Below, one piece after another: positions 15,375 to 20,922 of a stretch of 21,149 bases of DNA (position 1 is the stretch's first letter; each line of letters starts with the position of its first letter). The stretch lies in the IMG/VR virus record IMGVR_UViG_3300048609_000040, one strand, 5' to 3'. The position numbers were made by a program, and so were the translations under genes. The notes beneath the pieces are model-generated. The model ran no database searches, was not told where the DNA came from, and saw nothing but the letters and a program-made list of their open reading frames with translations. Source of the stretch: an uncultured virus (IMG/VR IMGVR_UViG_3300048609_000040) (Duplodnaviria > Heunggongvirae > Uroviricota > Caudoviricetes).

Positions 15375-16046
15375 TCAGCCTACGTCCTTGCACATACCTG
15401 AAAACACCTTTACGTCGTTCAAGACACGCTTTACGTTCTCTTCTATTGGTTGGAGGCCATTCAACACAGAAATCTTTTCGTTGCCTGGCCAAAATGATGG
15501 TGGTTCCGGCCAGTACGGGATCCATTGATAAGCCTTACGCAGTTGATCAACCTTCTCTACCTCGGCAGGTTCGTAGAGAGGTCTTCGGGCACGATGTCTC
15601 TTGTCTTGTCTCTCCAATGCCACGTTAGCAGGAACGTCGATAACATAGACGTGTGTGGGAACTACAGGTTTGACGTGTCGAAGTGCCGCCTCGACTACAA
15701 CACGACCGTGGATTGGCATTTGATAAACGAATGCGGAGAACATAGTGTGCCGATCGCCGACGATCATCACACCGTCGTTGCGCATTGCTGTTATCTGCGG
15801 TGTAAGGTCGGCAAGCTCTGCGGCAAACAGCCATAACATAGCCTCAGACGTGAAGCTGACGCGCTCGTCGAAGACGTCGAGGATCAACTGCCCCGCACGT
15901 GAAATCGGCCCAGGCATGGCTAGATGAGCTACAGGTAGTCCACGATCACGCAACTCGGCTACAAGAGCAGCTGCCAATGTTGTCTTACCGCAACCGTTTA
16001 CGCCTTCAAACACGACGTAAGGTGGTTCTTGTTTTTTACTCTTCAT
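15375..16046 (-). CDS. tmk: Thymidylate (dTMP) kinase
   Basis: VVFEGVNGCGKTT P-loop; LWLFAA; GDRH..S..VYQ; P.....IDVP..VALER. Start reassigned to ATG 16046 (GAGG RBS). Confidence 0.85.
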   Translation of the reverse strand: MKSKKQEPPYVVFEGVNGCGKTTLAAALVAELRDRGLPVAHLAMPGPISRAGQLILDVFDERVSFTSEAMLWLFAAELADLTPQITAMRNDGVMIVGDRHTMFSAFVYQMPIHGRVVVEAALRHVKPVVPTHVYVIDVPANVALERQDKRHRARRPLYEPAEVEKVDQLRKAYQWIPYWPEPPSFWPGNEKISVLNGLQPIEENVKRVLNDVKVFSGMCKDVG

Positions 16047-16446
16047 TGTTAGCCTCAGCCGGCCTAGCTTGGACCCGCAAGTAACGCTTTTCTGTTGTAG
16101 AGATTGGTAGCTTTGGTAGTACGACTCGCTGTTCGGTGACCAGACGAACGGCACCGACTTTATGGTCAGGTTGCGGATTGGGACCAATCAAACAGACAAA
16201 ACCTTCAAGCTCGTCGGCGCGTACAAGCCTATTTTCATAAGGGTAGACAACGTATGCCGCTGTTGTTAATTTTTCACACTCACTACACTGCACAGTGCCC
16301 CAGCCGACAACGCTTCGTAAGACAGGTTGCCCATCGGGGCCTATCTGACCTGTCCGTTTCGTCTCTGTGTAGATGGCGAAATAGTTGTCTGCCGCGACAA
16401 AATGTAACATGGTGGTAGTTGGTAAGGTGTGTAAACAATCAGGCAT
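16036..16446 (-). CDS. Hypothetical protein
   Basis: Start probably ATG 16446, overlapping the polymerase stop (track 16036..16473); fills the gap between pol and tmk. Confidence 0.65.
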   Translation of the reverse strand: MPDCLHTLPTTTMLHFVAADNYFAIYTETKRTGQIGPDGQPVLRSVVGWGTVQCSECEKLTTAAYVVYPYENRLVRADELEGFVCLIGPNPQPDHKVGAVRLVTEQRVVLPKLPISTTEKRYLRVQARPAEANNEE

Positions 16447-19400
16447 CGGCCCAACTCCGTCCATCTTTGACATCTACAGGGAAGAAGACCGTCACGCCAT
16501 TGTGCGTGTGGGTTTGCTGGAAGGCTTCACGAACGTCATCCTTGAGTCGCAGCACATCAACCTCATCGCACTCAAAGGTGATCGAGTCGTGGACTTGAAC
16601 GATAGGAAACGCGTTTCTGTATTGTTGACGTAGAACAGGTACAATGCGTTTAAGGCCCGTAGCCATAATGTCTGCCGCCGTCGAGTTGTGTACAACAAAG
16701 CCTTCCGCAACATAACCGTGATCGTCGCCTGGAATTTCGAGATCGAAAGTTTGTGCGGGTGGTTGTTTTATTATCTCTACTACAATGTCAAACTTCGCTG
16801 CACGTGTTGAAAATTCAACTGCAACATGATCTCCAACACGAAGATCACAAAGACGTGTCCAGGAAACAGTGTTACCGTCGTCGAGAAGGAAATAATGTCC
16901 CGCGGTACAACATAACGTACCGTGTTCAGCAAGCAACTTGTAGATAGGCTGAACACCAGCGTCGTGTAGTATGAAGTTGTTCGTACGCCGCCCGCTAGGT
17001 TGCTGTAAAGTGTGTCTTCGTGGATCAAGATCTCGATACCAGATCCAACCAAACGTGGTTAATACGCGTTGATCCCACCGCCCGCACTGTACGGGGAAGT
17101 TGTATACATCGTTGATTTCGGCATTACCTAACGGGAAACAGCGGCGGCGCCCGTAAATCGCCGAGCGAACCTCGTGTGGTGGCTGGGCTACGTCACGTAG
17201 CAGTTGTTGGTGCCATGCTGTAACACCAGGCATGCGTGAGGACATCAGCATGACCATACGCGCAATGTCTTCACGCTTGGTGTTAGGATGGTCCTTCTTG
17301 ATGTTGTTCCACAACGTGTCGATCTGGCCACCGTAGAAGGCACCGAACTCGGCGCGTTTGACGGCGTCGCGTAGAACCTTCCTCTCCGGTTGCGGCAACG
17401 TATCGAAATTGGGCCACACGATACGGGCGAATTCGGAGTGGATGTCCTTACCAGACGAGAAGATGTTACAGAGCCACGGATCGCCAGAAAGCAGCGCTAT
17501 CGTACGGCTCTCGATTTGACCGAAGTCAAACCCGACGAACCCGCGGGTTTCAGGTGCAACAACTTGCGCGCGAAGATTAGGCCGCCCTTTAGTAACATCA
17601 TCTCTGGGCCAGTTCTGACAGTTGCCTGTAATCATTACGTTTTTTCCTCGACGTACCACAATGTACGTCGAGGGAACAGAAACACAATAGACGTGTCCCT
17701 CCCACTGTCGTCGTGCAACCTTGGTTGTCTTTACCCATTTCAACTTCAATTTGGCAGCGGTCAACGACACCACTTCGTCGATATTATCTACAGCAGCAAT
17801 ACTATGCTTGTCTGACAGGTCTTCTGCAAAAGTGTCAGTTGACACAACAGCGTTCCCACCACGGCGTAATCGTGTCGGAAAGCCGTGAGATGGGGTCACA
17901 AACAGGTTTACGTTCTCGATGTAGATCATGTCTCCCGTATAAGGGAGATCTACGTATCTTGTAGGTTCAACGAAGTCGATACTGGAATCTTCCCTCCAGA
18001 ACTGTGCGACCTTACACCCGTGCAGCAGCGCAGGAAAATACACCCAACCTTTCTCGGTTAGTATCTCTGTCCTGTCGTCGAAGCACATTGGATCTTCTGC
18101 GCTCCAGCGACCTGTTATCCGATGCACACTCCACCGAGGATGCACTCGGTTGTGCTCGTCGACGTATCCATACTTGACGATGTTGCCTGCTTCATCGTGT
18201 CGATCGAAGAACGAGTAGATGAAGGTGCTGAACAACTTCTGGTTCTCACGATAATCCAGAAGTGCCCGCACTTCAGGGATGTGCACGAACGCTTCTAGGA
18301 TCTCCTTCTTGGTTGACGTCGCACCTTTCTCGGTTTGGAAATAGAGAGGCACACCGCGCGCCTTGAGATAGGCAGCAACGTGGTCACTGCTACCGATGTT
18401 CCACTCCCAAGCGTCCTTCTCGGCCGCGTCTATCAGTTCGGTCAACCGAACCTTTTGCCGCTCTAAGTAATCGTCAGGATCAGCGGCTCTACCACTAGGC
18501 TTACGGATCTTCTTGGCCTGCTCGAAGGCGATGTGCTGCCAGAGCGCGTCCTGGATCTCCGGTCGGTTGGCGTCCTCTTCTATGATCTTTTGCAGTTCGG
18601 GATCGTGTTTCTTGCTCCCGGTACGCCAATCAGCGAGCGCTTTGACTACTGGGTTGTCGAGGTATGGTTTCAGCGTCTCCTTGGTGATGCTGACCCGCGC
18701 TTTATCGGTTGTGGGCAAAACGACGTTGTGTACCCTAAGCCACCCCGCAACGTGATCTGCTGCTGTGATCTTCCACTTCCAAGCGCCCTTTTCGGCCGCC
18801 AATCGAATCTCATCGAGTCTGATTATCTTGCGGGTCTCGAACTCTTCGGGATCTTGTTTGGCGGTAGATCCTTGACGGTAGCGCTTAGCCTGTTCTGCAG
18901 CTAACCGATCCCAAAGCTTCTCGCGGATCTCTGGATCGTTGGCGCGGATTTCGATCTTCTCCCGCGCCACTTGCATGTTGTCCCAGAACTGTTTGTATAG
19001 CTGATCGTTGACCTCTTTGGAGATTGGGATACCTACGTCATACATCCACTCCGCGACTTCAGCACAGAACAAATCGACTTCATAGCAACGACGCGAGTCC
19101 GTTCGTTGCATTGCGACTTCAAGTGGTTCGTCAAGCCGTGCACATACCAGTGTGTCCTTGGCGTTATAAACTAAAAGGTTTTCTGGTGTGTCCTTACCTT
19201 GTCTAAACTCTGATTTCCACGGCCTGATGGCAAAGTATTGTGTACCAACTCGTTGTAGATTATGCGCAAGTCCAGGAAAAGCAGCGTGATGTTGAAGCAG
19301 TGTATCGGTGACTGGTCCAATCACAGGCAGGCGATGCCGTTTTAGCACCCCTTTGTCATATATCGAGTTGTGAAAGACCTTACGAATGTTTGGATCAGCC

Positions 19401-20305
19401 AACAACGCTGCAATTAACCGTTTTGACATCGGCGTGAGGATGCCCCACAGAACCGACAATCCCCAATTGGGGGTAGCCAACCCGATAGCACTCAACTTGG
19501 CATTGATTGGCTGCAACGCAGTATGCCGTTGTTCATCGTCAACGTAAGTCTCGGTGTCGACCGCAACCATACGTTGACGACGCGCCTCGACTACCATTTC
19601 TCGGATGAGTTTCTCTGCGCGGTTAGGATCGAAACACTCAGTCACAATATCTTCCTCACGGAAGACAATGTCCTTACCTGCCGCGATAGCTGCTACCTTG
19701 GCGGCGTCGTACATCAGATTCCAGAATGCGATGTCTGGACTGTGTGCGCCGCCGAGGCCAGCACCACCACGTAGAATAGCGGCAGGGTGGATGGTAGGGA
19801 TGACCGCCCGTTTGCCTGTACCGTCTGGATCAGCTAAATGGTACGAGCCTGCCAGGTCTTGTACAGACCCCACCCTTGACCCTAGAACAGCACGGGTCGC
19901 AACAGCTCCCAGGGCAAGAATCGCCTTACCTGGATGCTGTGATAGCTCCTGAACGAACCTTGGAGCACAAGCCTTGCGGGCCTTGTCTTTGTCTGTGTCG
20001 CTAGCTTCGGCCGTTGGCAGACACAACGTTGCGTTGGTCACCCACAAACGGCGACGATCTACACCGATCGCCGTCAATGCCTTGTTTACCAACTGCCCGC
20101 TGGCACCTACAAAGGGACGATTAAGTGCAATTTCTGTTTGCCCTGGGCCTTCTCCTACAACGATCCAATCAGCCTTGTCAGGATCGGGGCCTTCTCCGAC
20201 AACAGGCCGATTAGGTCCTTCGTCCCTGGCAAAAGGACAGTCCTTGCACTTGGCACCTTGAACGGTGCCACGAGCAAACGAAACAGCTTCGCGTATCACT
20301 CCCAT
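16439..20305 (-). CDS. polA: Family A DNA polymerase with N-terminal family-4 uracil-DNA glycosylase domain, 3'-5' exonuclease, duplicated thumb and two inteins (1288-aa precursor, ~999 aa spliced)
   Basis: UDG: CKDC, GEGPG, PFVG, TNATLC, KAC, HPAAILR. Exo: VAVDTET, FHNSIYD, YNAKD. Pol: TGRWS, motif A DFGQIESR, motif B RDAVKRAEFGAFYG, NFPVQ/STAAD, motif C VHDS. Start likely ATG 20305. Confidence 0.95.
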   Translation of the reverse strand: MGVIREAVSFARGTVQGAKCKDCPFARDEGPNRPVVGEGPDPDKADWIVVGEGPGQTEIALNRPFVGASGQLVNKALTAIGVDRRRLWVTNATLCLPTAEASDTDKDKARKACAPRFVQELSQHPGKAILALGAVATRAVLGSRVGSVQDLAGSYHLADPDGTGKRAVIPTIHPAAILRGGAGLGGAHSPDIAFWNLMYDAAKVAAIAAGKDIVFREEDIVTECFDPNRAEKLIREMVVEARRQRMVAVDTETYVDDEQRHTALQPINAKLSAIGLATPNWGLSVLWGILTPMSKRLIAALLADPNIRKVFHNSIYDKGVLKRHRLPVIGPVTDTLLQHHAAFPGLAHNLQRVGTQYFAIRPWKSEFRQGKDTPENLLVYNAKDTLVCARLDEPLEVAMQRTDSRRCYEVDLFCAEVAEWMYDVGIPISKEVNDQLYKQFWDNMQVAREKIEIRANDPEIREKLWDRLAAEQAKRYRQGSTAKQDPEEFETRKIIRLDEIRLAAEKGAWKWKITAADHVAGWLRVHNVVLPTTDKARVSITKETLKPYLDNPVVKALADWRTGSKKHDPELQKIIEEDANRPEIQDALWQHIAFEQAKKIRKPSGRAADPDDYLERQKVRLTELIDAAEKDAWEWNIGSSDHVAAYLKARGVPLYFQTEKGATSTKKEILEAFVHIPEVRALLDYRENQKLFSTFIYSFFDRHDEAGNIVKYGYVDEHNRVHPRWSVHRITGRWSAEDPMCFDDRTEILTEKGWVYFPALLHGCKVAQFWREDSSIDFVEPTRYVDLPYTGDMIYIENVNLFVTPSHGFPTRLRRGGNAVVSTDTFAEDLSDKHSIAAVDNIDEVVSLTAAKLKLKWVKTTKVARRQWEGHVYCVSVPSTYIVVRRGKNVMITGNCQNWPRDDVTKGRPNLRAQVVAPETRGFVGFDFGQIESRTIALLSGDPWLCNIFSSGKDIHSEFARIVWPNFDTLPQPERKVLRDAVKRAEFGAFYGGQIDTLWNNIKKDHPNTKREDIARMVMLMSSRMPGVTAWHQQLLRDVAQPPHEVRSAIYGRRRCFPLGNAEINDVYNFPVQCGRWDQRVLTTFGWIWYRDLDPRRHTLQQPSGRRTNNFILHDAGVQPIYKLLAEHGTLCCTAGHYFLLDDGNTVSWTRLCDLRVGDHVAVEFSTRAAKFDIVVEIIKQPPAQTFDLEIPGDDHGYVAEGFVVHNSTAADIMATGLKRIVPVLRQQYRNAFPIVQVHDSITFECDEVDVLRLKDDVREAFQQTHTHNGVTVFFPVDVKDGRSWADA
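16685..17086 (-). mobile_element. Mini-intein 2 (134 aa, no homing endonuclease)
   Basis: Starts CGRWDQRVLT; block B CTAGHYF; block F TFDLEI; ends VVHN followed by Ser+1. Exteins join as YNFPVQ-STAADI, equivalent to PolI NAPMQGTAADI. Confidence 0.92.
17621..18085 (-). mobile_element. Mini-intein 1 (155 aa, no homing endonuclease)
   Basis: Starts CFDDRTEILTEKGW; block B VTPSHGF; block F VYCVSVP; ends ITGN followed by Cys+1. Exteins join as GRWSAEDPM-CQNWP, equivalent to PolI GRLSSxxPNLQNIP. Confidence 0.9.
18248..18958 (-). repeat. Tandem ~112-aa duplication in the polymerase thumb
   Basis: Copy 1 18958-18623 and copy 2 18586-18248; about 49/113 identical residues by hand alignment with one gap. 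Confidence 0.9.
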
Positions 20306-20922
20306 TGGGCGGATGCATCTTTGAGCGTCTCGATTAGAGTCCACCTGCCCTCGTTACTTCTCAGCAATGGACTGTCGCTGCGCACGTAACCCCCTATGTC
20401 CTTTCCAGCGAAGGTCACGTGTATGATGCGGGCTTCGCCGACCAATCGTTTGAGTGCGCGCCAAACCGCACGGCAGCCTGCATTGTACGATGCAAACGTC
20501 CCGTAGTCTTCGATCACTTCCTGATACAAATCCTTGAAGACTTTGCATCGCCTAACAGGCGTGTGATCATACACTATCTCTCTAAGAGTATGTGTATGGA
20601 CTTCCCGTCTTCGATAGGGGTATGCAACATCGTAGAAGGGGTCCGGCAAATTGTCAGGGATGAAGTGGGCAAGATGTACATCTTCTCGATCGCAACGATC
20701 GTCCCTACATATTTCAGCGCCGTCTTCACCTATAGTTAAAACCGTAATCGGAGCTGGGGGTAAAGGCTCTTCGGCACGTTTCGACAAGAACAGACGACGC
20801 GCACGTTGTACAGCCTGACGAGTAACACCTAGTTTTTCCGCTAAGATACGATCAGGTTGTCTTAGTGTTTCGTTTTCCCAGTATTTGTTCCAGTTGATTC
20901 TCTTACGTCGTACCCTCGGCAT
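20296..20922 (-). CDS. Putative transcription regulator: N-terminal HTH, central C..C..H..H motif, possible C-terminal winged helix
   Basis: DRILAEKLGVTRQAVQRARR (HTH); CRDDRCDREDVHLAH; FKDLYQEVIEDYG...RAVWRALKRLV. Start likely ATG 20922 or 20928 within track ORF 20296..21066. Confidence 0.7.
   Translation of the reverse strand: MPRVRRKRINWNKYWENETLRQPDRILAEKLGVTRQAVQRARRLFLSKRAEEPLPPAPITVLTIGEDGAEICRDDRCDREDVHLAHFIPDNLPDPFYDVAYPYRRREVHTHTLREIVYDHTPVRRCKVFKDLYQEVIEDYGTFASYNAGCRAVWRALKRLVGEARIIHVTFAGKDIGGYVRSDSPLLRSNEGRWTLIETLKDASAQWE

Follow-up and report, generated by a model that had tools for sequence, protein, structure and literature searches.

The distal part of the polymerase thumb is present twice, in tandem and in frame, in a family A DNA polymerase encoded by an uncultured virus of the Caudoviricetes (IMG/VR record IMGVR_UViG_3300048609_000040), of which a stretch of 21,149 nucleotides, hereafter called the window, was analysed. 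The open reading frame (ORF) concerned (16439..20344, minus strand, 1301 amino acids (aa), GTG start) encodes a fusion of a uracil-DNA glycosylase (UDG), a 3'-5' exonuclease and the polymerase. The doubled tip is a thumb accessory made by self-duplication, rare and conserved, and it departs from the canonical thumb architecture, not from family A membership: where the canonical enzymes have one H-H1-H2-I thumb, this one has two full H1-H2 tip modules. The known route by which family A replicases gain processivity is an accessory at the thumb tip, as with the thioredoxin-binding domain of T7 and its thioredoxin, or Insert 2 of the SP15-like enzymes, and here the accessory was apparently built by copying the tip itself and was retained by selection. 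An old duplication of the tip, with the extra module serving as a putative DNA-gripping arm, is the reading that we favour from the combined analysis, and we give it about an even chance.

The duplicated segment consists of the tail of helix H, a charged two-helix hairpin, H1 and H2, and the head of helix I, all encoded on the minus strand. A helix of 26 residues (aa 443-468, 18941..19018, assigned with DSSP on the predicted model), which by position is thumb helix H, rises from the palm and runs into unit 1 (aa 463-574, 18623..18958), which contains helix a (471-486), helix b (502-518), a diverged H1 (529-538), H2 (555-561) and a short closing helix I' (565-575), and has a net charge of +5. 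Unit 1 is joined by a 12-aa linker (aa 575-586, 18587..18622), with a short helix at 582-592, to unit 2 (aa 587-699, 18248..18586), with helix a (595-609), helix b (626-642), canonical H1 (653-662) and H2 (680-686), the start of helix I (690-710) and a net charge of -4. As the end of helix H before unit 1 is echoed in the C-terminal part of the linker, the repeat period is about 124 aa, corresponding to a unit of 112 or 113 aa plus the 12-aa linker. An earlier, sequence-only reading of this DNA had described two consecutive units of about 112 aa that were some 43% identical, and these peptides were indeed recovered at the above positions: BLASTP aligned unit 1 with unit 2 at 49/112 identical residues (44%, 63% positives, one 1-residue gap) with an E-value of 8e-29, far beyond chance, and a profile built from 76 units matched both copies along the whole profile (E 2e-34 and 3e-45). 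The DNA of the two copies is only 52% identical, and 39% at third codon positions, therefore the duplication is old and has not been homogenised recently.

Repeats carry a general risk of being collapsed or mis-joined during metagenome assembly or annotation, and this general risk is all that speaks for an artefact, which we consider extremely improbable. Copies with 52% identity in DNA cannot be mis-assembled onto each other, and there are seven distinct two-unit sequences from different sources and contigs; an assembly artefact was excluded on the recurrence of the arrangement in independent contigs from other sources. A word-indexed search of proteins clustered at 90%, scored over residues 440-720, returned 12 proteins, six of which cover both units (P0002-P0007, with P0002 being the window's own protein), with the other six covering 45-54% of the query. 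An exhaustive HMMER pass of 1.84 billion representative proteins with unit 2 as query gave 80 relatives, three with two full units (P0002, P0005 and P0007), and domain-level checks found two full units only in P0001-P0007. The two-unit clade thus defined comprises seven distinct sequences from uncultured phages, which are 52-99% identical to the window across the region, and a comparison of homologs with one and two units, as proposed in the sequence-only reading, confines the two-unit form to this small clade, with single-unit forms common among the relatives. Among 36 IMG/VR loci found with an alignment as query there were two two-unit genes, one two-unit gene cut by the contig end (L003), 32 one-unit genes and one partial gene, and with a single protein as query the IMG/VR search returned no relative. 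A metagenome scan yielded one locus only, an allele 99% identical to the window (L037, protein P0003), and species-representative genomes gave two distant matches only, both in metagenome-assembled genomes (MAGs), of Patescibacteria and Gracilibacteria, with 32-33% identity in the C-terminal part. A tblastn search with the 329-aa thumb region found no match in 50,697 deposited phage records, and the full-length homolog P0004 matched 2,645 of the deposited phage records, all at less than 60% identity, the best 20 among the matches listed being 22.7-30.9% identical.

The domain-level checks also disposed of several apparent duplications outside the clade. The double stretches in P0025, P0026, P0029, P0041, P0046, P0054 and P0063 represent one unit split by an insert; in P0039 and P0043 the second stretch is weak and spurious; and P0069 and P0084 contain several weak partial stretches, with no full-length unit. 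Four of the split units (P0025, P0041, P0054 and P0063, all single-unit proteins) have Cys-rich, zinc-ribbon-like inserts of 34-100 aa with CxxC pairs, located between helix b and H1, and this site is the strictest counterpart of the position of the thioredoxin-binding domain in T7. The alignments point to the thumb tip as a hot spot for accessories. In the sequence-only reading the charged first half of each unit, about 55 aa long, had been taken for an insert peculiar to each copy, and this did not hold: the charged two-helix hairpin is family-wide, with one in each of the 80 relatives. It thus characterises the family as a whole, and what sets the two-unit clade apart is the doubling alone. 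The placement of the hairpin at the T7 thioredoxin-binding-domain site stands as a fair topological description, but the equivalence is ambiguous, as helix b aligns with the C-terminal half of Klenow helix H.

Structures were predicted with AlphaFold2 for the full-length, intein-free homolog P0004 (mean predicted local distance difference test score (pLDDT) 93.4, predicted template modelling score (pTM) 0.84) and for aa 425-753 of the window protein (329 residues, mean pLDDT 95.8, pTM 0.79, with pLDDT of at least 90 in 309/329 residues). Both copies are predicted with high confidence to be folded, including copy 1, whose prediction as unfolded would have spoken against the sequence-only reading (pLDDT 93-96 in the two models). 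The order of elements is the same in both units, with helix a (15-16 residues), a loop of 15-16 residues, helix b (17), H1 (10), a small beta bridge and H2 (7), and the modelled closing helix differs, with 11 residues for I' in unit 1 and 21 for helix I in unit 2. Residues 435-580 of KlenTaq superpose on the window model over 141 residues with a root-mean-square deviation (rmsd) of 2.4 Å, a Z-score of 11.2 and 28% identity, and nearly all of the KlenTaq thumb finds a counterpart; because of this superposition, the canonical thumb is predicted to be intact, with about 185 of the 329 residues being additional. The top ten matches in a Foldseek-independent structure search were all PolA thumbs (Z 9.7-6.8, 132-164 residues aligned), and the helix at aa 443-468 pairs with helix I, as judged from two-helix structural matches spanning model residues 19..291. 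The GIPIS sequence at the start of this helix, which is outside the family-profile alignment, is presumably the counterpart of GVKID in Klenow. In the alignment of the family profile with Klenow, helix b, H1, H2 and I correspond to the second half of helix H, FNLSS, STSEEVLEEL and ILEYR, respectively.

The two copies do not match the canonical tip equally well. Pfam DNA_pol_A matches unit 2 from unit residue 43 onwards, with an E-value of 0.028 for the unit alone and 6e-8 together with the following segment, whereas unit 1 has no DNA_pol_A match at any E-value up to 10 and matches nothing else in Pfam. Copy 2 is the working canonical tip and leads into helix I. The assignment of the second half of each unit to the Pol I thumb tip, made in the sequence-only reading, is therefore direct for copy 2, but unit 1 is known as a thumb tip only through unit 2, since it has no Pfam match of its own. 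Conservation gives a similar picture: with family-conserved columns defined as those shared by 80% or more of 64 single units (n=22), 19/22 were kept in all six unit-2 copies and 9/22 in all six unit-1 copies, which, with the Pfam match being limited to copy 2, bears out the earlier observation that copy 2 keeps the canonical motifs better. The nine columns kept by unit 1 include the hairpin residues A, E, A, R, D, R and R, so that copy 1 has retained the family-invariant residues of the hairpin, whereas in its tip half the canonical motif residues are gone and the charge has become consistently basic. A structure search of BFVD gave one match at an E-value of 0.001 or lower, and none covering both units with a good fit (best query-normalised TM-score 0.38, rmsd 14 Å). 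The sequence-only reading knew of no such architecture among characterised PolA enzymes, and in agreement with this no PolA with a tandem thumb tip was found in solved structures, in BFVD or in the literature (titles and abstract openings).

In a tree of the 76 units, all six copies of unit 1 fall into a single clade (Shimodaira-Hasegawa-like approximate likelihood ratio test (SH-aLRT) support 97), and its inner branching is mirrored by the unit-2 copies, a topology that fits a single duplication before the two-unit clade diverged. A backbone tree was made from 29 full-length proteins after removal of the unit columns, and here the two-unit proteins group together with the single-unit protein P0009 (support 94). 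Over aa 396-753 the window and its 99% allele L037 have 78 codon differences, 74 of which are synonymous. Unit 1 accounts for 20 synonymous and three non-synonymous differences, with a ratio of non-synonymous to synonymous rates (dN/dS) of 0.036, and unit 2 for 24 and none (dN/dS 0, both by the Nei-Gojobori method). For the pair L001 and L003, in which dS is close to saturation, the dN/dS of unit 1 is about 0.10. By these codon comparisons, both copies are under purifying selection. We also noted that dS between the window and L037 varies approximately ten-fold over 18086-19159, from 0.09 in the unit-2 hairpin to 0.98 in the unit-2 tip half and 1.17 in the 5' flank, and this variation suggests mosaic recombination inside the polymerase gene.

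The two copies have diverged in charge as well as in sequence. In all six two-unit proteins examined unit 1 is positive (net charge +5 to +13) and unit 2 is between -5 and 0, and the median net charge of the 64 single units is +3.5. Between sub-clades, the two hairpins are 40-68% identical; across the deepest branches, 24-36% identity is retained in the unit-1 tip half, which is free of disruptive indels. The distal thumb was thus doubled in one small clade of UDG-exonuclease-PolA enzymes by an ancient tandem duplication, in frame and about 124 aa long, and in the DNA-gripping reading the extra module would make up a second, positively charged thumb arm. Such an arm may add contacts to the product duplex and may thereby confer higher DNA affinity, processivity or strand-displacement capacity, in which case it would do, as a built-in part of the enzyme, what the thioredoxin-binding domain and thioredoxin do in T7 or Insert 2 does in the SP15-like enzymes. 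A more ambitious version is a self-made processivity device, in which the two tips would grip the duplex at successive positions or from two sides and partly enclose the DNA, clamp-like and partner-free; this we regard as a tentative proposal, which if true would represent a route to processivity by internal duplication that is undescribed for any DNA polymerase.

Several observations weigh against the extra module being a maintained DNA-binding arm. P0009 has a single unit, yet it is nested with P0006 and P0007 in the backbone tree (SH-aLRT 100) and shares 87% identity with P0006, a two-unit protein, outside the thumb. The number of units can therefore change, and at least one lineage shows the second unit to be dispensable or exchangeable. 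Evolution is fastest in the unit-1 tip half, at 24-53% identity between sub-clades versus 73-91% for the tip half of unit 2, and on these alignments such a rate is compatible with relaxed constraint as well. A net charge of +5 or higher was also found in 24/64 single units, so the charge of unit 1 is within the range of the family. Finally, instead of facing the DNA, the unit-1 tip half, which is basic, could pack against the acidic unit-2 hairpin. P0009 itself resembles unit 1 in helix a and unit 2 in the tip, and its hairpin loop is of the short outgroup form, with five residues fewer than either copy has in any of the six two-unit proteins. Loss through a simple deletion between repeats is unproven, since the outgroup-like short loop fits an exchange of the cassette equally, and both the loss of a unit by deletion and the exchange of a thumb cassette are possible.

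Most of these observations would also be expected of a structural extension or tolerated passenger, in which the unit-1 tip half, the linker and the unit-2 hairpin pack on each other and lengthen or stiffen the thumb, with selection only for a folded and harmless state. The rapid change of the unit-1 tip half, the absence from unit 1, in one or more of the six proteins, of 13 out of 22 family-conserved residues, the complementary charges on the unit-1 tip half and the unit-2 hairpin, the nested single-unit form, and the tolerance of unrelated Cys-rich inserts of 34-100 aa at the same thumb region of other relatives can all be explained in this way. It is harder to reconcile with the dN/dS values of unit 1, which range from 0.036 to about 0.1 in two independent pairs, with the preservation of length and frame in a clade that elsewhere shows only 50-75% identity between its members, and with the retention in unit 1 of every hairpin invariant, as such constraint is above what foldability alone would normally require; a passenger therefore seems unlikely to us. 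The same evidence qualifies the statement in the sequence-only reading that the duplication is old, in frame and probably maintained: the low dN/dS values of both copies against L037, and of unit 1 between L001 and L003, speak for maintenance, but with P0009 in view the second unit is not indispensable.

The divergence in charge in opposite directions in 6/6 proteins looks like sub-functionalisation, and this might reflect docking of a partner, with the extra module or the acidic unit-2 hairpin recruiting a replisome protein (helicase, primase, single-stranded DNA-binding protein or a host factor), in the manner of the T7 thioredoxin-binding domain, without binding DNA itself. The presence of UvrD-like and DinG/XPD-like helicases in the replication module and the strong purifying selection on both copies would be in line with such a role, and a contact with helicase has been raised for an analogous thumb insert in the report on the SP15-like enzymes (PMC13697223). 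On the other hand, the hairpin arginines are conserved family-wide, which would fit a role in DNA binding or in structure equally well. We find recruitment of a partner doubtful. If instead the extra module binds DNA, as in the DNA-gripping reading, it would represent a compact, partner-free design for a more processive or strand-displacing PolA, and a clean case of sub-functionalisation after intragenic duplication. The natural one-unit, two-unit and Cys-rich-insert forms on similar backbones provide a ready comparative series.

The other domains of the ORF are those of a phage replicase. In the database form (P0002) translation starts at an ATG at 20305, giving 1288 aa. The family 4-type UDG domain (aa 55-193, 19766..20182, minus strand) matches Pfam PF03167 with an E-value of 8.9e-19 and the PDB structure 1ui0 with 2.2e-19, and the 3'-5' exonuclease domain (aa 244-409, 19118..19615, minus strand) matches PF01612 with 27.8 bits (cutoff 23.6). 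DNA_pol_A (PF00476) is matched in three stretches (E 3.8e-36, 125 bits versus a cutoff of 34.3), and PHROGs assigns the product to phage DNA polymerase (phrog_17, E 1.7e-62). Membership of family A is further apparent from the alignment of the 80-member family profile with Klenow (E 4.8e-62), and the P0004 model has the Pol I large-fragment fold, matching Bst, Klenow and Taq with TM-scores of about 0.8 (normalised to the target). Stretches fitting catalytic motifs A, B and C were seen in the translation and aligned with Klenow, and the C-terminus lies about 50 aa past motif C. The UDG domain contains GEGPG and HPAAILR-type motifs and four Cys residues at the positions of iron-sulphur (Fe-S) ligands, the defining features of family 4. 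These motifs are of the active type and suggest replication-coupled uracil excision, as has been reported for SP15-like and SPO1-like polymerases.

The genomic neighbourhood is a replication and nucleotide-metabolism module with a UvrD-like helicase, a D12-class adenine methyltransferase, a DinG/XPD-like helicase and a thymidylate kinase. Relatives are located on viral contigs in IMG/VR, the longer of which measure 61-221 kb, and the protein of the window is recorded on a contig of 145 kb. Because of this replication module, the large viral contigs and the lack of a close relative among deposited phages, we conclude that the ORF product is the replicase of an uncultured large phage. Directly downstream of the polymerase gene, and overlapping its 3' end by 35 nt, is a 145-aa ORF without a Pfam family (16036-16473, minus strand), which is a candidate accessory protein, with nothing tying it to the thumb. 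A 151-aa ORF on the plus strand (2016-2471) has a match to the C-terminal domain of ribosomal protein L7/L12 in residues 53-82 only (E 7.8e-6, 26.6 bits, cutoff 25.9), which is odd in a phage replication region and may be spurious.

The polymerase gene of the window is interrupted by two mini-inteins, both on the minus strand and neither with an evident endonuclease domain. Mini-intein 1 (aa 754-908, 155 aa, 17621..18085) is located in the palm just ahead of the motif A region and has a first Cys, a last Asn and a Cys at +1, and mini-intein 2 (aa 1087-1220, 134 aa, 16685..17086) has a first Cys, a last Asn and a Ser at +1. Both are recognised as inteins by these terminal residues and by their precise absence from orthologous alleles, as they are missing from the 99% allele L037/P0003 and from P0004, whose sequences run uninterrupted through the sites; Pfam Intein_splicing supports mini-intein 2 alone, with an E-value of 1.8e-6 that is below the cutoff. 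P0009 and P0012 contain larger inteins at the site of mini-intein 1, L037/P0003 contains a large LAGLIDADG-type intein in the exonuclease domain, and further inteins, at the window sites and elsewhere, were seen in P0007, P0009, P0010 and P0012. The intein content is therefore highly polymorphic across this polymerase family. In the single-unit protein P0012 there are large insertions close to motif B and at the first intein site, and the contig that encodes it, 4.74 Mb long, bears the label of a Gemmatimonadota MAG, which hints at a prophage and at a possible host phylum for part of the family.

When compared with known systems, the enzyme of the window shares features with several family A polymerases and is the same as none of them. 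In T7 gp5 the thioredoxin-binding domain comprises residues from about 262 to 338, between thumb helices H and H1, and recruits thioredoxin and the acidic tails of gp4 and gp2.5. Like the window enzyme, T7 gp5 is a family A phage replicase with an extra element on the distal thumb that would lie over the product duplex, and it is among the best matches of the window thumb model (2ajq_A, Z 9.2, 164 residues aligned, chain 218-436). In T7 the element is a flexible loop dependent on the thioredoxin of the host, whereas the window has a folded helical copy of its own tip; there is no sequence similarity between them, and the point of insertion is not provably identical. The thumb tip of Klenow, between the latter half of helix H and the beginning of helix I, aligns with unit 2 residue for residue, and KlenTaq superposes as described above, but these enzymes have one tip and no hairpin, and the window has about 185 extra residues.

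The closest likeness in domain organisation is with the UDG-PolA enzymes of SP15-like and SPO1-like phages. In the solved SP15-like structures, a helical thumb Insert 2 contacts dsDNA via conserved basic residues, is likened to the T7 thioredoxin and is proposed to raise processivity, and the SPO1-like enzymes have two helices integrated in the thumb at the Insert 2 position (PMC13697223). The SP15-like enzymes (YerA41, phiLo; PDB 9qhs) thus have in common with the window the UDG, exonuclease and PolA architecture and a helical thumb accessory with basic residues; they differ in having an Insert 1, a C-terminal domain of about 80 aa, and as Insert 2 a four-helix bundle that is no repeat of the tip. 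Neither Insert 1 nor the C-terminal domain was evident in the window sequence or the P0004 model, which were inspected without a structural comparison with the SP15-like enzymes. In a phmmer comparison of the window protein with 9qhs, the only matching parts were the UDG domain, with an E-value of 1.3e-11, and 70 residues of the palm, with an E-value of 0.07. The SPO1-like enzymes share an N-terminal active-type family 4 UDG and a two-helix thumb element that matches the single hairpin of the 80 relatives, but no duplication is described for them, and the thumb region of the window has no sequence match in deposited phages. The window enzyme is therefore related in architecture to the SPO1-like and SP15-like polymerases and distant from them in sequence.

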